Shown here piece after piece: positions 17,757 to 30,268 of a stretch of DNA of 35,736 nt (within the stretch, counting starts at the first letter, position 1; each line of letters opens with the position of its first letter). Origin of the DNA: Dehalococcoidia bacterium (GTDB taxonomy: Bacteria; Chloroflexota; Dehalococcoidia; E44-bin15). The notes beneath the pieces are model-generated. The model saw only the letters and a list, made by a program, of their open reading frames with translations. It ran no database searches and was not told where the DNA came from. The stretch is taken from positions 1-35,736 of the forward strand of contig JAVLBD010000001.1 in the NCBI GenBank assembly GCA_031581405.1, read 5' to 3'. The translations under genes were made by a program, and so were the position numbers.

Positions 17757-18962
17757 TTATAGGCCAGCCTCAGACCTGAGTAGAGCCGCCTTATCGGTCT
17801 TCTCCCATGGAACATCGATATCGGTGCGACCGAAATGGCCGTAGCTAGCGGTTTGTTTGTAAATGGGGCGTCGTAACTTTAAATGATCGATGATCGCACC
17901 GGGGCGAAGGTCAAAATGCTTATTGATCAGGCCAACAATAACATCATCGGCAACGTGACCGGTGCCAAAAGTCTCTATAGCGATAGAAATGGGATGAGCC
18001 ACTCCAATTGCATAAGAGACCTGGATTTCAAGCCGATCGGCGACCCCCGCTGCTACAAGGTTCTTGGCCACATACCTCGCCGCATAGGCTGCAGAACGGT
18101 CCACCTTTGTGGGATCCTTGCCCGAGAAACAGCCTCCACCGTGCCTGGCGATGCCGCCATATGTATCTACCAGTATCTTACGCCCCGTGAGACCACAATC
18201 ACCCATGGGGCCACCAACAACGAAGCGTCCCGTAGCATTTACATAATACTTCGTATTTTTATCAAGCAAGGACGACGGAATTACCGGCTTGATAACATGT
18301 TCAAGAATATCGTTCTTTATTGTTTCGTGGCTGGTATTGGGATGGTGCTGAGCAGCAATAATGACAGTATCGACGCGTTGAGGAACGCCCTTGGAATACT
18401 CTACGGTTACCTGTGATTTACCATCGGGGCGCAGGTAGTGAAGGGTGCCGTCCTTCCTAACTTCTGCAAGACGCTTGCATAGCTTGTGTGCCAGGGAGAT
18501 AGTGATGGGCATAAACTCGGGCGTTTCGTTGCAGGCAAATCCCACCATCATCCCTTGATCGCCAGCACCAACGGTCTCATAATCGTTATCACCTTTACCG
18601 CTCTTAATCTCAAGCGACTTGTCTACTCCTAAAGCGATGTCCTTCGACTGCTCTTTGATTGAGACCATTACGCCACAGGTATCACAGTCAAATCCGTATT
18701 TAGCACGGGTATAGCCTATTTCTCTCAACACCTGGCGCACCACATCCTGCATCTCCACATAGCAGTCGGTAGTTATCTCTCCCATAACAACGACCAGCCC
18801 GGTGGTCGCTACGGTTTCGCAGGCCACCCTGGCCATAGGATCCTGGGCCAGGATTGTGTCGAGTATAGTATCTGAGATAATATCACATAGTTTATCGGGG
18901 TGGCCTTCTGTCACCGATTCAGAGGTGATAAATTGAGATGGTGCGCTCATAAAAGTTGTCAT
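17757..18962 (-). CDS. metK: S-adenosylmethionine synthetase
   Basis: Motifs [23 protein letters not shown] and [16 protein letters not shown]; 401 aa. Confidence 0.97.
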
Positions 18963-18979: not shown

Positions 18980-21150
<2,171 letters not shown>

Positions 21151-21206: not shown

Positions 21207-21737
21207 TCAAATACCATTTGTTGGAGAGCTGAGCCAATCAAGTACTTGCCTTAGAACCTCACTGTGATTAGCCCTGGTCACTGTGCTGATAACCACATTG
21301 GGGTGCTGCTTAATCTCATCTGCCCATGGGTGGGAGGACCGCATGATAGTACCCAGAATCCTCTTTTCGCCATTTATTGCATCTGAGACCGCCAGTTGAA
21401 AACTGGGGGAAAATAGCTCCATCTTTCCGATCTCATCGATGACGATAAGATCACGCTCCCGAGTCGCTTCTCTGAGTGCCCCAACCCCTACTCTATCCAG
21501 ACCTTCGATATCAACGCCATATTTGCTGATACGATAGGGACTTATAATATCGATGTGAGCTAGAATCGCACTATAACCTTCCAGTGTTACAATCCTGAAG
21601 CCCTGCCTAACCCCACCCTCTCTAATTTCTTCGGTGAAAAATCCCCCAGCAGCTACCTGAGCCTTTTCCAAAGCTCGTTTAATAATAGTGGTTTTACCAA
21701 CTCCGGGACCACCGGTGAGAAGATAGGCCTTCCTCAT
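21207..21737 (-). CDS. THEP1/NTPCR-like nucleoside-triphosphatase (P-loop NTPase_1 family)
   Basis: 176 aa with Walker A GGPGVGKTT and Walker B LIVIDEIGKMEL. Size and layout resemble the Aquifex THEP1 family. Confidence 0.8.
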   Translation of the reverse strand: MRKAYLLTGGPGVGKTTIIKRALEKAQVAAGGFFTEEIREGGVRQGFRIVTLEGYSAILAHIDIISPYRISKYGVDIEGLDRVGVGALREATRERDLIVIDEIGKMELFSPSFQLAVSDAINGEKRILGTIMRSSHPWADEIKQHPNVVISTVTRANHSEVLRQVLDWLSSPTNGI

Positions 21738-21823
21738 GCACTTTTCTCGACCCTCCTCTTCTCCTTCATCTTTTTCATTTTCTTGCGGTGTTTCATCGTT
21801 GCAACTCTTTTAGTCTTATTCAT
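21734..21823 (-). CDS. Untracked 29-codon, extremely basic miniprotein (MNKTKRVATMKHRKKMKKMKEKRRVEKSA); reminiscent of bS22/AURKAIP1-type mini ribosomal proteins
   Basis: Hand translation of the - strand. ATG at 21823 is preceded by AAAGGGGGG. Its TGA (21734-21736) overlaps the NTPase ATG (21735-21737) as ATGA. 15 of the 29 residues are K/R/H. Confidence 0.45.
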   Translation of the reverse strand: MNKTKRVATMKHRKKMKKMKEKRRVEKSA

Positions 21824-21909: not shown

Positions 21910-22131
21910 TCATACCGTTATACTGAAAACCTCCACAAACCGAGCGATGGAGCGGTCGTATGTTTTTTCGACCTCAGGTGGAAAAAGACATCCCGGTAGC
22001 TCACCGAGCCTGTTGTGATATACTATGCAGTCGCAGCATTTCCCCTTTCTCTCACAGGGCTCATATGTGCACGTACATCTGCTCTTATTAGCAGTAACGT
22101 TGCATTCCAATTTATCAGATTTCTTTAACAT
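21910..22131 (-). CDS. Small Cys-rich protein (8 Cys; C-x10-CTCTYEPC-x5-CCDC-x14-C) of unknown function
   Basis: 73-aa ORF whose ATG lies 17 nt inside the 3' end of the MetE-like gene. The CxC..C....CCxC pattern suggests a metal or Fe-S site. I recall similar uncharacterised 'cytosolic Cys-rich' proteins in anaerobes, but this is unverified. Confidence 0.7.
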
Positions 22132-23104
22132 GCCGCTTTCTAAATTCTGTGGAAACCCCGGCCAGGAGCTCCAAAGCCCATTCTGCCGCCTCCTCCGAGA
22201 GCGAATCCAGGCCGCACGATGGGGTAAGCAAACACCGCTCTTTCATAAGGCTGAGACTGACACCTTTTCGATTGAGGGCCCCAAATCCGTCTTCTAGGCG
22301 GTCAAGAAGGCTGTTTACCGTTTCACCCTGCAGGTCTTGTGCATCATGAGCTACAATGCCCCAGGCAATTACGCCACCACGATCAAGGAATGCCTTCACC
22401 TTATCAGGGTAAAGGGCAATAGTGTACCCATAATTATAGGCATCGAAGTTCAGAATGTCGAGGGATGTGGAAAGTAACATCGACCAATCGGTGTTGCCGC
22501 AGCAGTGAACCCCTTTGAGCCCGCTGATACCGGAAAAAACTTCTTCTAAAAGGCTTGTTATCTTATCCGATGAGATAGAGACAAAAGCGGAGCCAATAGA
22601 GGCCATATATGGTTCATCAACGAAGATGATTGTATTAGGGGAAATAGTCTTAATCTCCCGCTCCTGCCAGGCTGCTTTTAAATGAAGGTGTTTGGCCATA
22701 GCATCAGCAAGGGTATCGTTATAGAGGAGTGGGCGACGGTTCTCATCGGTCACTGCTAATCCCCAGGTAACCGGACCTGTAATTTGACCCTTAACGGCAA
22801 AGGGTGAACCGTGCTTCCTTTCGAGAAATGCGTGAAGGCCTGCGGCATGGTCAGAGTTTATCGCATATTTCTCGATCTTATCTTCGAGATAGGAGGAATA
22901 TAGCTTTTCAAGGGGCTTATCCAGATCTTTAGAGCTATCAACATAAATGCGTTCACTTTCTATGACAACGCCAGGGAATCCATCGCTGAACTGGGCGTAC
23001 ATATTCTCCAAAAAAGAGCGCCTAGTAAGTTGTGGCCAGGCGGGGATCTCAGGTAAGAACTTATCTACCAGTGAGCATGCCTCTTTGGGGTCGGTATGAG
23101 GCAT
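22115..23104 (-). CDS. Stand-alone MetE C-terminal-barrel-like protein: candidate folate-independent ('core') methionine synthase
   Basis: 329 aa with IIFVDEPYM (DEP), KGVHCCGN (H-x-C) and LTPSCGL (xCGL). These match the Zn/homocysteine-site motifs of cobalamin-independent methionine synthase. There is no N-terminal folate barrel. The gene is embedded among SAM-cycle genes. Confidence 0.72.
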
Positions 23105-23174
23105 ACTTCCTATTATAGTAGCCAGTCCGCTGAGTTCAAATCGGGGCAGTTCGTCGCACCTCTCTAAGAAGTAA
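23105..23174 (-). promoter_or_regulatory. Candidate cis-regulatory leader RNA upstream of the MetE-like gene (SAM-I-like core fragment; helix sequestering the SD)
   Basis: The - strand reads UACUUCUUAGAGAGGUGCGACGAACUGCCCCGAUUUGAAC...AUAGGAAGUA-UG. UACUUC pairs with GAAGUA, which covers the AGGAAG SD. The AGAGAGGUG..GA..ACUG.CCCGAU..GAA string resembles the SAM-I J1/2-P2 core, but P2b pairing and the GCAACC element are not evident. Confidence 0.25.
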
Positions 23175-24173: not shown

Positions 24174-25190
24174 CTATAACCTATCTTTGTAGGGCTCCCT
24201 GATTACGCCTCGCTCAGTAATTATAGCAGATATGTAGCGATGAGGGGTGATATCGAAGGCGGGATTTGCTACATTCACTCCTGCCGGGGCGATAGGAACC
24301 CCCCTTATATGGGTAACCTCTTCTGGACTTCGCTCCTCAATGGGGATCTCATTCCCTGATTCCAGTGAGTAGTCTATAGTACTTATCGGGGCAGCGACAT
24401 AGAAAGGGACGCCATTTTCCATTGCGAGAACTGCCAAATTATAGGTACCAATCTTGTTGGCAACATCGCCATTTGAGGCAATCCGGTCAGCACCTAAGAT
24501 AACGCAATCTATCACTCCTCTAGATAGAAAATGACCCGTCATCGTATCCGTGATTAGAGTAAAGGGGATGTTATATTTCAACAGCTCCCACGCGGTGAGG
24601 CGCGCTCCCTGGAGAAGAGGACGTGTTTCGCTGGGGAATACGTGGATTTTTTTGCCGCTATCCCATGCTGTGCGGATGACTCCCAGCGCGGAGCCGTATC
24701 CTGCTGCCAGTGCCCCGGTGTTACAATGTGTCATTATATTGAAACCATCTTTTATCAACTCTGCACCATAAGAGCTAAGTTTTCGCTCCGCCGCATCGTC
24801 TTCGGCATCCAACTTTTGAGCCTCGGCAAGTAGCGTTGCCTTTATTTCGTCCACGCTCTCGCCAGCTTCGGCTACTTTGTTCATCCTTTCCAGGGCCCAG
24901 AATAGGTTGACTGCGGTCGGTCTTGTAGCAGCCAGCGTCTCGGAAATAGGGCTAAGTTTAGCTAAAAATTCCTTTTTCGAAGTAGCCTCGATCTCCCGAG
25001 CCCCTAATGCCATTCCATATGCAGCAGTGATTCCTATAGCAGGGGCACCTCGAATCCTCATATCCTTAATCGCGGACGCCACCTCGCGATAGTCTGAAAG
25101 TTGTAGATAAACCTCCTCCCATGGAAGCTTGGTCTGATCGATCATCACAACCTTGCCCGCGATCCATTCTATAGCTTTAAATGCACTCAT
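24174..25190 (-). CDS. mtnA: S-methyl-5-thioribose-1-phosphate isomerase (eIF-2B-like family)
   Basis: [21 protein letters not shown]..., GAPAIG and [18 protein letters not shown]. The ATG at 25190, with a GAGAGG SD, is preferred over the upstream in-frame ATG at 25265. Confidence 0.9.
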
Positions 25191-25601
25191 TTTAAACCTC
25201 TCATCTACTCCTCTATTAATTGATTCTCCTTTTTCACCATTGCTGGTGTAGTATATGCCTTCCACATGGAATCTCTCCTGTATCGCGGTCAGGATCTGCT
25301 GGGTCTATTTATCGTCCTCGCAATCGACTGGTTTGATAACTGCTACCAGCCGCAATAACACAGCAGTTGCGGTGATGCTTCTTTTCGGGGAGGCCCATAC
25401 AAGGTCCATTAGGTTCAAAGAAGAAACGTAGGAGTCATTGATCATTACGAAAAGGGGGGCTTAGAAGAGTAACTGCAGCCGCAGGTGCCCTTTACCCCGG
25501 TATCTTCCATGTGTACTCTACAACCTCATACCATAGTCAGCATCTATGTTTCATCTCACTTTAGGAGCTCTAATTGAATGTTAACCAACCCCTTATCCGA
25601 C

Positions 25602-26114
25602 CTAATATTTAATCAGGGATATGATCGGATAATCTTTCAACCTGTGCCTTGCGTTGAGGAATGTCAGTTCAATGAGAAAAGCGATGCCAATAATATGCCC
25701 GCCAAGTTCCTCTACAAGTTCGATTGTAGCTGATACTGTCCCACCTGTTGCCAGGAGATCGTCTATTACTAGCACCTTCTGGCCAGGCACGATGGCGTCC
25801 TTATGCATATGGAGAGTATCAACCCCATACTCAAGGGAATACTCAGCACTGATGCATTCAGTGGGAAGTTTCAGTGGCTTTCGCACTGGAACAAAGGCAG
25901 CACCCAGATTGTATGCCAGGGGAGCGCCAAGAATGAATCCTCTTGCTTCTGCAGCGACGACAACCTCAACTTCCTTATCACGATAGCTTTCAGTTAAGAG
26001 ATCGATTAAGTATCTGAAGGCTGCGGCGTCTTGAAGTAAAGGGGTAATATCCTTGAAAACGATTCCTTTCTTGGGGAAGTCTGGTACATCACGGATCCTT
26101 CCTTCTAGATTCAT
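25602..26114 (-). CDS. apt: Adenine phosphoribosyltransferase
   Basis: ...IRDVPDFPKKGIVFKDITPLL... and the PRPP loop VLVIDDLLATGGT. The ATG at 26114 has a GGAGAG SD 7 nt upstream, so the TTG at 26129 in the ORF track is rejected. Confidence 0.93.
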   Translation of the reverse strand: MNLEGRIRDVPDFPKKGIVFKDITPLLQDAAAFRYLIDLLTESYRDKEVEVVVAAEARGFILGAPLAYNLGAAFVPVRKPLKLPTECISAEYSLEYGVDTLHMHKDAIVPGQKVLVIDDLLATGGTVSATIELVEELGGHIIGIAFLIELTFLNARHRLKDYPIISLIKY

Positions 26115-26144
26115 TGTTACACTCTCCAATCTAGCGTTTCGCTA

Positions 26145-26663
26145 TCAACTACAACCATCCACACAATAAAGATCGGGCAGATTGCGAAACCGCTCGTCGT
26201 AGTCCAGACCATAGCCTACCACAAACCTGTTGGGGATGGTTAAACCTAGGTAATCGATGGGGACGGGGATTATTCTTCGTGAGGGCTTATCGAAGAGGGT
26301 GCATAGTTTCAATGAGGATACCCTCTTTTTTCTTAGATAATCCAGGAAATAGCCCATAGTGAGACCCGTATCCACGATGTCCTCGATAATCAGGACGTCC
26401 CTCCCTTTCAACGGGGTACGCAGCCCCTGTACTACCGTGATCTTGGCCGAGCTTACCCTTGACGAGCCATAGCTTGAGAGGCGGACGAAGTCTATCTCCA
26501 CGGGTATTTCCAGTAGGCGGATGATATCAGCCATGAAAACGAAGGAGCCCTTGAGAATGCCCAAGAGAAGGGGATATTTCCCCTGATAGTCTCTGCTGAT
26601 CTCTTGGGCCAGCCTGGCGACCTGTTTCTCTATTTCCTCTTTGGTAATCAGAATTTCAACCAC
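26145..26663 (-). CDS. hpt: Hypoxanthine(-guanine) phosphoribosyltransferase
   Basis: GTG start, ...LLGILKGSFVFMADI... and the PRPP loop VLIIEDIVDTGLT; 172 aa. Confidence 0.92.
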   Translation of the reverse strand: MVEILITKEEIEKQVARLAQEISRDYQGKYPLLLGILKGSFVFMADIIRLLEIPVEIDFVRLSSYGSSRVSSAKITVVQGLRTPLKGRDVLIIEDIVDTGLTMGYFLDYLRKKRVSSLKLCTLFDKPSRRIIPVPIDYLGLTIPNRFVVGYGLDYDERFRNLPDLYCVDGCS

Positions 26664-26772
26664 GTTATAACTTCATCATTGTGATTATTGGAATACACAC
26701 TTATGCGCCAATTATATTTATAGCCCTTAAATTTGTCTAGCTGTTGTTATAGGCAGCCAGCGCTCGACATAA

Positions 26773-27549
26773 TTACAGCCTTGGAATTATGGCTATATGA
26801 GGTGACCTGGTAATGGGGTGCTGTGTTACGTGAACCGAGGTGGCGAAAACATTCTCAATGGTTTCAGCAGTTAGCAATGTTTCGGGGTTGCCGTCAGTGA
26901 AGATGCGGCCTTCCTTGAGGAGAATTAATCTATCAAAGTAAATGGCAGCCAGATTGAGGTCGTGTATCGCTGCGATGACCGTAACCCCCTGTTCGCCGTT
27001 AAGGCGTTTGACGAGATCAAGGATCTCCACCTGATGATTGATATCCAGGTGTGCCGTAGGTTCGTCCAAGAGAAGTACTTTGGGTTCTTGAGCTAGCGCC
27101 ATGGCGAGGATTGCCTTCTGACGCTCCCCACCGCTCAGTTCATTGAAGAACCGATCCTTCAATGGTGCCAGCCCGATGAGCTCGATGGCCTGTTCGACCA
27201 CGCGACGATCTTGCTCCCCCTCATCGGAGAAGAGACTAAGGAAGGGGGTTCTTCCCAGGAGCACCACCTCCCTCAGGTTAAAGGCAAAAGGCATGCTGAA
27301 CTGCTGAGGTACCACGGCGACACACTGTGCAACCTGCTTCCTTTTCATCCTGCCTAGTATTGAGCCGTTCAAATGAATATCACCGGCTGTGGGTCGCAGC
27401 ACACCGCTCAAGAGCTTGATTAGAGTGGTCTTCCCCGAACCATTGGGTCCCAGGAGAGCTACCATCTCGCCTTCCTGTACTAATAGGTCGATATTGTGTA
27501 ACACGGGGGTCTTACCGTATGAGAAGTAGACCTGATTAATGTTAATCAT
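26773..27549 (-). CDS. ABC transporter ATP-binding protein, BtuD/FecE type
   Basis: Walker A GPNGSGKTT, signature LSGGERQ and Walker B LLLDEPTAHLD. The start overlaps the permease stop. Confidence 0.93.
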   Translation of the reverse strand: MININQVYFSYGKTPVLHNIDLLVQEGEMVALLGPNGSGKTTLIKLLSGVLRPTAGDIHLNGSILGRMKRKQVAQCVAVVPQQFSMPFAFNLREVVLLGRTPFLSLFSDEGEQDRRVVEQAIELIGLAPLKDRFFNELSGGERQKAILAMALAQEPKVLLLDEPTAHLDINHQVEILDLVKRLNGEQGVTVIAAIHDLNLAAIYFDRLILLKEGRIFTDGNPETLLTAETIENVFATSVHVTQHPITRSPHIAIIPRL

Positions 27550-28604
27550 TAAAAGGCGTATTCCCTTCTGTGTCGTCTCAACAGGTAGATGAAGAATGGG
27601 GCACCGATAATGGCGGTGATAACCCCTAGCGGGATCTCTCTCGGGGCAAGCAAAGTGCGGGCAAGTAGGTCAGCGAGGACGATGAAGGCAGCGCCAGTAA
27701 GTGCTGATGCAGGCAACAGGAGACGGTGGTCAGCTCCCAGTACCAATCTTACCGCATGGGGAACCACCAGCCCGACGAAGCCAACCAGCCCACTCAAAGA
27801 AACGGCCGCTGCTGTTAGCAAGGAGCCCAGGCTAAGAACGAGAAGCTTTTCCCTCTCAACATTAATACCCAGGTATGCAGCACCTTCCTCGCCTAAGGAG
27901 AGTGCATTAAGGCGAGAGGCAAGGAAGCGAGCAGCGACAATCCCCCCAATTATAAGAGGGGCGATGATGATTATCTGGTTCCACCCGGTTACCGAGATAC
28001 TTCCCATAAGGAAAGAAAATACGTTCTCAAGAAGCCCCGGTGTGCCACTTAAGGCCACCATGAAGAAAATGACCGCCGTCAACATAGCGCTTATGGCAAA
28101 CCCTGCAAGCAGCATGCTAACTATTGGTGTTTTGCCTCCCACTCTGGCCAGGTTATACACCAGGAGAACAGCGCCCAACGCCCCGAAAAAAGCGGCGATG
28201 GGTACAAGCCCAAAGCTGAGGAAGACAATGCTTATTGGGAGCATCAGGGCAATGGTTGCGCCAAAGGCAGCACCTGCTGAAGTACCTATTATATAAGGGT
28301 CCGCCATGGGGTTCCGCAGCATCCCCTGGAAAAGCACCCCCGCTGATGCTAACGCGGCTCCAACCAGTGCCGAGGCAATGACTCGGGGAAGCCTGATCTG
28401 GAACAGGATGGTCTCCGCGCTGGGTGGCCAAGTAGGTGAGAAATGGGAAAGCCCCGTCTTATTTAGGGTCATCTTTAGTATACTTAGCGTAGAGATATGC
28501 ACCGCCCCGATAGAAACGGCAACGAGCATGCATAGCAGCAGTATTGCACCCAGTGCTACCAGGATAAGCAGCCGGCGATTTCGCTTCAGTCTAGTGGGCA
28601 ACAA
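27549..28604 (-). CDS. FecCD/BtuC-family ABC permease
   Basis: 351-aa polytopic membrane protein with ...RLPRV..A.LVGAALA.AG...Q...RNP.ADP...G.S.GA... typical of the FecCD family. Confidence 0.92.
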   Translation of the reverse strand: MLPTRLKRNRRLLILVALGAILLLCMLVAVSIGAVHISTLSILKMTLNKTGLSHFSPTWPPSAETILFQIRLPRVIASALVGAALASAGVLFQGMLRNPMADPYIIGTSAGAAFGATIALMLPISIVFLSFGLVPIAAFFGALGAVLLVYNLARVGGKTPIVSMLLAGFAISAMLTAVIFFMVALSGTPGLLENVFSFLMGSISVTGWNQIIIIAPLIIGGIVAARFLASRLNALSLGEEGAAYLGINVEREKLLVLSLGSLLTAAAVSLSGLVGFVGLVVPHAVRLVLGADHRLLLPASALTGAAFIVLADLLARTLLAPREIPLGVITAIIGAPFFIYLLRRHRREYAF

Positions 28605-28695
28605 TAATCCCCCTCATCGCATATATGGTCAACTGGCGTTATGGACTTTAAGCACCATCGACATCGGACTATTATAGCGAGTACTCAAGTTACCT

Positions 28696-29979
28696 TTACT
28701 CGAATAGTTCTGGGTGGATAATCTTGGCCATCTCCTCAAGACCATCAAAGATGCGGGGGCCTGGACGGGAGATAAGGTCCACGTTTATAGGATATATCGA
28801 TACATTCTGAACAGCTCTCAATGTGCCCCAGCCCTCGCGTGCTACTACATCATCAGGCGATACCCAGGGGTAATCGCCAAGAATGATCATGTCGGGATCA
28901 CGGGTAATGAGCTCCTCTATAGAAAACTCAGTCCAACCATCAACTGCGCTCGCAATGTTCTCGCCGGCTGCCAGGGTGATGAGAATGTCGACGAATGTAC
29001 CGCTGCCTGCGGTCCATGGCAGAGCTTGGTTGGAAGCGTCTAGCTCATAGAAGACTGTGGGCGTTGTATTGGCGGAAGCGGTTATTGTACAGGTGGAGAC
29101 CATATGAGCTTCCATTTCGTCGATGAGTTCCTCTGCCTCGTTCTCTTTGCCGGTAATCTCGCCCGCTAGCTCGATATCCTCCAAAATATCTGCAATATCA
29201 TGTGGTTGAAGTATAACGACAGGTATCCTCAGGCCCTCAAGATCATAGACGTAGTCCGGAACTGTCTCTCCTACAGCGAAAGCTATGTCGGGATTCAGAC
29301 TAACGATGGTCTCCAGGTTAAAACTCGGCCAGGGAGCACCGACCCTTTGTATTTCGCCAGCATCAATTTTAGCTAGCAGCTCTTCAGGATAATCACAGAA
29401 GTCGGTTACCCCCACGATCTTATCACCCAGACCGAGGGCAAACAGAATCTCAGTGTTGCTCGGTGACAAGGAAACAATCCGCTGGGGAATCTCCGATACG
29501 GTTACTGTCCTATCGAGGTCATCAGTTATCGTTATTGGCCCCGGCGCTGCGGAAACAGTCATGTAGCAACTTCTTGTAGCTGTCCCTGCTATCCCATCGG
29601 CAGCGGTAGCACTAACAATGAAATTCCCTGTTACAGTTGGTGCTATCCAGGTAACTATACTACCCAATCCTGAAATCGTTCCACCGGTAGCTGACCAGGT
29701 ATAGGTAAGGGTGTCGTCATCAGGATCGCTAGCTATGCAGGTTATGACAGAAGTTCCTACCGGATGTACACTTGAGGGAGAGGCCTTAAGACTGGTAATC
29801 TCTGGTTGACTGTTGGGTAGCGGTGTCGGTGTTGGTGTAGGAGTAGGTGTCGGTATGGGCGTCGACGTGGGTAACGATGTCGGTGTTGGAGTAGGGGTTG
29901 ACGCCGGTGTAGTGGTGCAGGCTGTCATTAGAGTAAGCGCTACGACCAATGAAAATAAAATCATAGCTAGACTTCTCAT
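28696..29979 (-). CDS. Lipoprotein: BtuF/FecB-type periplasmic-binding domain fused to an N-terminal Thr/Pro linker and an Ig/PKD-like domain
   Basis: GGAGGA SD. Signal peptide plus lipobox-like LMTAC. A TP-rich stretch of about 35 aa. A segment with ASDPDDDTLTYTWSATGG (PKD-like DPDxDxLTYxW). The C-terminal ~290 aa carry RIVSLSPSNTEILFALGLGDKIVGVT, typical of class III SBPs. Confidence 0.88.
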   Translation of the reverse strand: MRSLAMILFSLVVALTLMTACTTTPASTPTPTPTSLPTSTPIPTPTPTPTPTPLPNSQPEITSLKASPSSVHPVGTSVITCIASDPDDDTLTYTWSATGGTISGLGSIVTWIAPTVTGNFIVSATAADGIAGTATRSCYMTVSAAPGPITITDDLDRTVTVSEIPQRIVSLSPSNTEILFALGLGDKIVGVTDFCDYPEELLAKIDAGEIQRVGAPWPSFNLETIVSLNPDIAFAVGETVPDYVYDLEGLRIPVVILQPHDIADILEDIELAGEITGKENEAEELIDEMEAHMVSTCTITASANTTPTVFYELDASNQALPWTAGSGTFVDILITLAAGENIASAVDGWTEFSIEELITRDPDMIILGDYPWVSPDDVVAREGWGTLRAVQNVSIYPINVDLISRPGPRIFDGLEEMAKIIHPELFE

Positions 29980-30032: not shown

Positions 30033-30065
30033 AAAAAATCCCCTCGCTCTGCAGAACGAGGGGAT
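30033..30065 (-). terminator. Intrinsic terminator forming the expression platform of the cobalamin riboswitch
   Basis: The - strand reads UCCCCUCG-uucugcaga-GCGAGGGGA followed by UUUUUUAU, about 50 nt upstream of the SBP ATG. Confidence 0.7.
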
Positions 30066-30067
30066 AC

Positions 30068-30240
30068 CCACGCTATCTTAGCATGCTTCCCACCCCCTTT
30101 TATCCGCGGAGGTAACAGGAAATCCGGAGGCTGGCGTTCTGACTTCCCTGAATAAGCTCAGGGTAACAGCAGGCGGTACTGCGCCGGATTCTCACCGGCT
30201 TGCCGCCCCTTTAAGCCCTTGCTCGCGCTTGGGCACCTCT
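30068..30240 (-). promoter_or_regulatory. Cobalamin (B12) riboswitch aptamer
   Basis: The - strand contains GGUGCC...UUAAAGGGG...GCCGGUGAGAAUCCGGCGCAGUACCGCCUGCUGU...GGGAAGUCAGAACGCCAGCC. This matches the conserved CCGGUGAnAAUCCGG..GCAG.CCCCGCCACUGU core and the AGUCAG...GCC B12-box region. It sits upstream of a BtuFCD-type operon. Confidence 0.85.
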
Positions 30241-30268
30241 GGGTCTGTTATTCAGTTTTACGACAATA

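Follow-up and report, generated by a model that had tools for sequence, protein, structure and literature searches.

A MesB-type methionine synthase and an adjoining DUF6485 miniprotein gene in a predicted methionine-cycle operon of a Dehalococcoidia bacterium

In a 35.7-kb stretch of a contig from a metagenome-assembled genome of a Dehalococcoidia bacterium (NCBI), which is called the window below, the gene of a single-barrel methionine synthase and the gene of a cysteine-rich miniprotein directly behind it were analyzed. Judged from its sequence, the large gene is an ordinary member of the known MesB/core-MetE family, and the enzyme itself adds nothing new. For the miniprotein, a member of the Pfam family DUF6485, the evidence favours a context-independent and non-essential role in anaerobes; for MesB it would be a facultative accessory at most, needed neither as a subunit nor as a methyl relay or an activator. 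The probability of this reading as a whole was put at about 0.75. No published mention of the pairing of mesB with DUF6485 was found, the model organism included; literature searches for DUF6485, cbdbA480 and DET0515 returned nothing either. Each of the two has a large and conserved family behind it (more than 6,400 database clusters for the large open reading frame (ORF) and 762 for the small one), so neither is a chance ORF. The features on which the argument rests are as follows (aa, amino acids; nt, nucleotides).

22115..23149, minus strand: mesB, methionine synthase of the core-MetE type; 344 aa from CTG 23149, or 329 aa from ATG 23104
23157..23164, minus strand: Shine-Dalgarno-like GAGAGGTG, 7 nt upstream of the mesB CTG start, read from the sequence
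21910..22131, minus strand: DUF6485 miniprotein gene (Pfam PF20095); 73 aa from ATG 22131, or 66 aa from TTG 22110

The methionine synthase and its start codon

Core-MetE (Deobald 2020, PMC7005905), also named MesB (Price 2021, PMC7857596), is a single-barrel, folate-independent methionine synthase which uses methylcobalamin and has been reported from all Dehalococcoidia (PMC7005905, PMC7857596). The initial annotation had recognised a MetE-like protein of one barrel without the folate domain, carrying the motifs VDEP, H-x-C and PSCGL. All three motifs were found in the large ORF, as VDEP, VHCCGN and TPSCGL, its Zn/homocysteine site was intact, and the AlphaFold2 (AF2) model of the 344-aa protein (pLDDT 92.7) covered half of MetE. 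Among the described short MetE-like families, where the annotation had proposed to place it, the protein fell into MesB/core-MetE: in phmmer against DET0516 (Q3Z939; P0396 in our set), the 344-aa form scored 359.6 bits and the 329-aa form 347.1 bits, both above the family criterion of at least 173 bits (Price et al. 2021, PMC7857596). The identity to D. mccartyi WP_011928886.1, whose 90% cluster includes DET0516, was 50% over 332 residues without gaps.

The catalytic residues were compared in an alignment of 84 MesB sequences, relatives included, with numbering after the 344-aa form. The Zn ligands H215, C217, D236 and C312 were invariant, aligned gap-free with those of the D. mccartyi enzyme and occupied the positions of the published CbdbA481 numbering (PMC7005905). 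Of the homocysteine-binding residues, Ser15 and Asp177/178, D178 was also invariant, and S15 was present only when the CTG start was used. The window protein thus resembles D. mccartyi MesB (CbdbA481; DET0516; PMC7005905, PMC7857596) in its single barrel of 343-344 aa, its ligands, S15 and D178, and differs from it by Gln122 in place of His122, Tyr69 in place of Trp69 and a probable CTG start. In the non-enzymatic Chloroflexales homologues of MesB, the Zn and homocysteine residues are missing.

The clustering with MetE rather than with UroD/MtaA, which the annotation had expected, was borne out by structure. In the Foldseek search of the MesB model, MetE together with the single-barrel entries 3rpd and 1ypx was matched at E values of 2e-9 to 8e-6, and canonical MetE (T. 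maritima 1xpg, C. albicans 4l5z) stood at the top with 2e-9; the TM score against MetE was 0.6 when normalised by query length and 0.3 when normalised by target length. UroD and the M. mazei methyltransferase 4ay7 ranked below all MetE entries, at 1e-5 or above. In the proposed profile search, a Pfam scan at E up to 0.1, there was no match for MesB, neither to Meth_synt_2 nor to URO-D. With NCBIfam, only 38.6-38.8 bits were reached to the archaeal 'methionine synthase' model NF002119, whose cutoff is 258. The D. mccartyi reference enzyme likewise had no Pfam match and behaved in the same way with NCBIfam, so the lack of a Pfam match characterises the family as a whole and does not mean that the window protein has diverged. 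A sequence search of the PDB with MesB found nothing.

Based on these results, two other assignments were rejected. Canonical two-barrel MetE (TIGR01371; Meth_synt_1 plus Meth_synt_2) shares the catalytic barrel and the Zn-thiolate activation of homocysteine; the window protein lacks its N-terminal folate barrel, is only about 14% identical to it, has Asp instead of Glu as the third Zn ligand, matched no curated model and stayed below the NF002119 cutoff. Characterised MesB uses methylcobalamin and not methyl-tetrahydrofolate (methyl-THF) (PMC7005905). The MtaA/UroD corrinoid methyltransferases, distant TIM-barrel Zn enzymes which receive the methyl group from corrinoid proteins, were the weaker structural match (1.5e-5 for 4ay7 versus 2e-9 for MetE) and, as said, had no URO-D match to support them.

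By analogy with the characterised enzyme, the Zn held by H215, C217, D236 and C312 would activate homocysteine, which S15 and D178 would help to bind, and the homocysteine thiolate would take the methyl group from a methyl-corrinoid and not from methyl-folate. The donor in vivo is presumably a corrinoid protein such as CoFeSP. Purified core-MetE CbdbA481 was active in vitro on methylcobalamin and not on methyl-THF, with a kcat of about 60 per s and with no DUF6485 protein added (PMC7005905). For the corrinoid, Deobald et al. proposed His122 as the lower ligand, within an 'HxxG' motif 'conserved among all Dehalococcoidia' (PMC7005905). Codon 122 of the window gene (22784..22786, minus strand) encodes Gln, and at least 90% of the relatives in the 84-sequence alignment share this residue; His at this position was found in D. 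mccartyi and in a small number of relatives (P0011, P0017).

The large ORF was called as 22115..23104 on the minus strand, 329 aa from ATG, and the deposited protein MDR9458550.1, 'methionine synthase', has this form. However, the called ATG is probably not the start. In-frame coding sequence, beginning after a stop codon, extends upstream of it. In most of the mesB genes fetched, an ATG, GTG or TTG stands 13 codons ahead of the conserved 'GS', and the homologues of 343-347 aa begin with MPRFELSGL.TAVGS-MPH; at the homologous position the window has CTG (23149..23147), as does one relative (L003), preceded by GAGAGGTG and the 7-nt spacer. The peptide PRFELSGLATIIGS between the CTG and the called ATG is conserved among relatives. 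Because of the start position, the ribosome-binding signal with its spacer and the conserved peptide, translation probably begins at the CTG, 15 codons upstream of the annotated ATG, to give a product of 344 aa. With CTG as start codon, the deposited 329-aa model probably lacks 15 N-terminal residues, the homocysteine-binding Ser15 among them.

The DUF6485 miniprotein and its linkage to mesB

The eight cysteines which had been counted in the 73-aa ORF were located at C10, C19, C21, C26, C32, C33, C35 and C48. The protein matched PF20095 with 32.6-33 bits (cutoff 24) and was typical of this family ('cytosolic protein' in NCBI and UniProt) in length and Cys/His pattern, with nothing distinctive. 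These eight positions and H39 were invariant or nearly so, and DUF6485 identity was 60-80% across bacterial and archaeal phyla whatever the context. When 1.84 billion representatives were searched exhaustively with a profile, 469 relatives were obtained; the best 150 of them were 50-132 aa long and all stand-alone, with no fusion or larger architecture. The exact 73-aa sequence of the window had no entry in the protein collection. A four-helix AF2 model was obtained (pLDDT 86.6), which had no Foldseek match in the PDB at E up to 0.001; the PDB sequence search was empty as well, and the permissive Pfam scan showed no similarity to metallothionein, CXC or ferredoxin families. To judge from this Cys/His pattern, the protein most likely binds a metal cluster of the Zn-thiolate or Fe-S type through its eight Cys and its His. 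Sets of nine Cys/His ligands occur in the Zn3 clusters of CXC and pre-SET domains, and the 'C-x-C…E-P-C' stretch resembles the CxCEPC motif of the cyanobacterial metallothionein SmtA; both are leads only.

The 17-nt overlap of the two ORFs that the initial annotation reported is present as the genes are called, although it may stem from calling the longest ORF. Throughout the family the protein begins with 'M-E-C', two codons ahead of the first Cys, and this start corresponds in the window to TTG 22110..22108, which lies 4 nt past the mesB stop; the upstream ATG would add seven non-conserved residues. Whichever start is used, the sequence places the DUF6485 gene in tight coupling to mesB, with which it is predicted to be transcribed together in Dehalococcoidia. 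Gene callers can miss DUF6485 when a GTG or TTG start lies a few nt past the mesB stop. At one such site (L093, 4037..4234) no gene was called and the DUF6485 profile scored 137 bits. Counts of DUF6485 based on annotation are therefore underestimates.

The annotation had suggested testing whether the neighbourhood of the Cys-rich ORF and the enzyme is conserved, and among the lineages sampled this proved true of one only. A single genome from each GTDB species was scanned, which gave at least 583 DUF6485 loci, and the best 80 were analyzed. In 36 of the 80, mesB lay directly upstream on the same strand, and in one more at 2.8 kb; all belonged to Dehalococcoidia/Chloroflexota, whose loci in this set number 42. 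In 25 of the 36, the mesB stop and the conserved start of DUF6485 were at most 25 nt apart or overlapped. The D. mccartyi pair overlaps by ATGA and bears consecutive accessions in many genomes, for example AAW40227/AAW40228 in strain 195. Seen from mesB, DUF6485 followed directly 3' in six of eight lineages, one of these having been missed by the gene caller (GTG start).

The remaining 43 of the best 80 loci had no MesB within the available flank. They came from Anaerolineae (17), Moorella/Neomoorella (5), WOR-3 (4), Dehalococcoidia (5), Desulfofundulus, Atribacterota, Thermoplasmata, Bathyarchaeota and others, 38 of them thus in other lineages. No neighbour was shared among the 43, whose 143 neighbour proteins fell into 128 Pfam families; outside Dehalococcoidia the neighbours included IDI-2-type FMN_dh, DUF2207, glycine cleavage proteins, flavin reductase, pseudouridine synthases and ArsR. 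The comparison of MesB-linked with unlinked DUF6485 gave mean identities of 0.72, 0.73 and 0.70 and no discriminating column, and the window copy was 75-77% identical to copies from Moorella and a Thermoplasmata archaeon versus 60% to that of D. mccartyi. Three local patterns were seen beside these counts. In WOR-3 (L026, L044, L068), DUF6485 stands beside the glycine-cleavage genes GDC-P and GCV_H, another one-carbon context with too few cases. The Moorella copies have flavin reductase and ArsR-type regulators close by, again in few, lineage-specific cases. In Dehalococcoidia, an NTPase gene (PF03266) is the commonest gene 3' of DUF6485.

Natural losses of the miniprotein gene were found in close relatives of the window. 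In three independent assemblies (L087, L088, L089), MesB was 96-97% identical to that of the window and DUF6485 was gone. L087 and L088 are fully syntenic with the window, and the alignment of their junction revealed a clean deletion of about 198 bp (L087 10990..11084 versus window 21910..22110) which leaves the first nine DUF6485 codons between near-identical flanks. L090 and L091 of the same narrow clade have kept the gene, so deletion and intact variants occur within one 90%-identity MesB cluster. In L085, mtnA-mtnP-mesB is followed by a thiolase gene, with no DUF6485 after mesB.

The annotation had proposed the Cys-rich protein as a dedicated partner of the enzyme, and the results lend this weak support: the linkage it presupposed is conserved, and the deletions, the lack of sequence specialisation and the unlinked copies elsewhere stand against it. 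As such a partner, DUF6485 would serve as a docking or relay factor between a corrinoid protein and MesB, as a reductive activator, or in Zn or Fe-S delivery, much as MesX serves MesD. The core synthase MesD of aerobic bacteria with MesX (DUF1852; PMC7857596) indeed offers a precedent, a small protein of unknown function encoded beside the synthase. However, MesX is genetically required, whereas DUF6485 is deleted in close relatives, has anaerobic hosts and, because Pfam matches it only to PF20095, is not a homologue of DUF1852. The adjacency in 36 of 42 loci at coupling distances, the overlapping D. mccartyi pair, the persistence of the pair while downstream genes vary, and the gap that is conceded for the methyl-donor route of MesB in vivo (PMC7005905) speak for a dedicated partner; such a gene would hardly be deleted cleanly beside a near-identical MesB, be widespread in phyla where it never stands beside MesB, or be dispensable to an enzyme which works in vitro without it (PMC7005905). 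We consider this reading unlikely, and a direct partnership with MesB improbable in general. An obligate, MesX-like role was rejected on the deletions in L087-L089, the absence after mesB in L085 and the 43 of 80 loci without MesB: an obligatory partner is unlikely to be deleted in near-identical relatives. A milder form, in which DUF6485 is the participant missing from the donor route, a metal-cluster miniprotein that aids MesB and serves other metalloenzymes elsewhere, would explain the deletions by being conditionally dispensable. In that case it might bridge MesB to methylated CoFeSP, keep the corrinoid or Zn site competent, or supply Zn; we regard this form as doubtful.

Stronger, yet still short of an even chance, is the alternative that DUF6485 has a housekeeping function in strict anaerobes, as a metal-binding or redox miniprotein, and only by chance lies in an inherited S-adenosylmethionine (SAM) cycle operon. 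The heterogeneous neighbours outside Dehalococcoidia, the high conservation regardless of context and the repeated loss beside mesB agree with it, and in some Dehalococcoidaceae (L008, L022) the gene stays with the NTPase and PfkB kinase genes and not with mesB. What it explains poorly is the class-wide retention after mesB at distances suited to translational coupling, which is hard to understand without a benefit of co-expression. It overlaps our preferred explanation and differs only by denying any accessory benefit to MesB; that DUF6485 is functionally unrelated to methionine synthesis was given a comparable, substantial minority share. The probability left over falls to a looser benefit within the methyl cycle, for example metal supply. 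A last alternative concerns the enzyme, which could be a MesB-like paralogue acting on another thiol or methyl substrate, for example in the salvage of methylthioadenosine (MTA). In most loci mesB is directly preceded by the MTA phosphorylase gene mtnP, Gln replaces His122, and distant MesB-like proteins may have other functions (Price et al., PMC7857596). The score, however, is far above the family threshold, all Zn and homocysteine residues are intact, and the characterised D. mccartyi enzyme is encoded in the same mtnA-mtnP-mesB order; a paralogue of this kind is very improbable.

Several points weigh against the preferred explanation of an ordinary MesB with a context-independent, at most facultative DUF6485. 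The two genes remain adjacent at MesB identities as low as 50%, with varying genes behind them (NTPase, aldo-keto reductase, PfkB, APH/AAA_33 kinase), and this persistence exceeds what simple inertia predicts. Where the gene has been deleted, another DUF6485 copy might be present at a different place in the genome. CTG initiation, on which the 344-aa form depends, is rare in bacteria. No genes for the CoFeSP (AcsC/AcsD) of the Wood-Ljungdahl pathway were found within the window, and Deobald et al. allowed for 'a yet unidentified participant' in the methyl-donor route of MesB (PMC7005905), a place that DUF6485 could fill in principle.

The surrounding operon and the corrinoid importer

Around the pair, the window has the following features.

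17757..18962, minus strand: metK, SAM synthetase (Pfam S-AdoMet_synt N, M and C domains)
18980..20242, minus strand: ahcY, S-adenosylhomocysteine hydrolase (Pfam AdoHcyase, AdoHcyase_NAD)
20230..21150, minus strand: PfkB-family kinase (Pfam PfkB)
21207..21737, minus strand: THEP1-type NTPase (PF03266; family profile match)
21734..21823, minus strand: very basic ORF of 29 codons, MNKTKRVATMKHRKKMKKMKEKRRVEKSA; its stop overlaps the NTPase ATG, and it is kept with a synonymous change in L087/L088
23235..24101, minus strand: mtnP, MTA phosphorylase (NCBIfam TIGR01694, 319.5 bits, cutoff 274.85)
24174..25265, minus strand: mtnA, methylthioribose-1-phosphate isomerase (NCBIfam TIGR00512, 435.7 bits)
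25602..26129 and 26145..26663, minus strand: two phosphoribosyltransferase genes (Pfam Pribosyltran)
26773..29979, minus strand: BtuFCD-like importer, with ATPase 26773..27549, FecCD permease 27549..28604 and periplasmic binding protein 28696..29979 (Pfam ABC_tran, FecCD, Peripla_BP_2)
30038..30065, minus strand: terminator-like hairpin (12 bp) with T-run, after the aptamer and 59 nt ahead of the BtuF-like start
30112..30255, minus strand: cobalamin riboswitch aptamer (Rfam RF00174, 46.2 bits, E 1.1e-08, gathering score 31.5)

From its gene content, the order mtnA-mtnP-mesB-DUF6485-(basic mini-ORF)-NTPase-kinase-ahcY-metK reads as a methionine/SAM-cycle operon downstream of a corrinoid importer. 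In this context the PfkB-family kinase would be the adenosine kinase of the SAM cycle, and the two phosphoribosyltransferases would act in purine/adenine salvage. The mtnA ORF is listed with 363 aa from a GTG; in the syntenic L087 the gene is called with 338 aa, which corresponds to the internal ATG 25190, probably the real start. The D. mccartyi locus has the same mtnA-mtnP-mesB-DUF6485 ... ahcY synteny, which extends to metK, and it was through this gene arrangement that Deobald et al. reached cbdbA481 (PMC7005905); downstream it carries a 531-aa APH/AAA_33 kinase where the window has the NTPase and the PfkB kinase. This reference locus (L082) was found by an exact-match scan of metagenome contigs with the published cloning primer A481_fw. 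A second exact match to the 20-nt cbdbA481 primer (L081, 2302..2321) probably arose by chance, the collection being very large; neither the MesB nor the DUF6485 profile matched there.

The basic mini-ORF (27-35 aa, MNK[RKT]KRVA..KHRK..KK.K.KRR…) was found 3' of DUF6485 in 9 of 46 MesB-linked and 0 of 43 unlinked loci, often overlapping the DUF6485 stop or the NTPase start. Besides the window, it occurs at L087 11084..11173, at about L093 4231..4320, and in L002, L006, L018, L038, L053 and L090/L091. The Pfam and NCBIfam scans gave no family match for the 29-aa peptide; it may resemble the tiny basic ribosomal proteins of the bS22 type.

A B12 riboswitch and a corrinoid importer in the same orientation had been noted 5.6 kb from mesB. 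Both were found on the minus strand, and the distance was corrected: upstream of mesB, the importer genes lie at 3.6-6.8 kb and the riboswitch at about 7 kb. The arrangement of aptamer and hairpin suggests an ordinary riboswitch which acts on the importer by transcription termination. The promoter and terminator scans did not rise above chance (18 found versus 16.3 expected, and 10 versus 11.0) and so speak neither for nor against control of mesB by the riboswitch. A promoter-like site with 11 of 12 positions (26739..26711, minus strand) between the importer and the salvage/mesB genes suggests a separate transcript.

For the MesB family, these results mean that Gln122 across a large clade bears on the proposed 'His-on' mechanism. 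For DUF6485, the natural deletions lower the prior for essentiality. The pairing with mesB offers a cheap and concrete candidate for the missing part of the in-vivo methyl-donor pathway, for which the natural deletion variants are ready controls.

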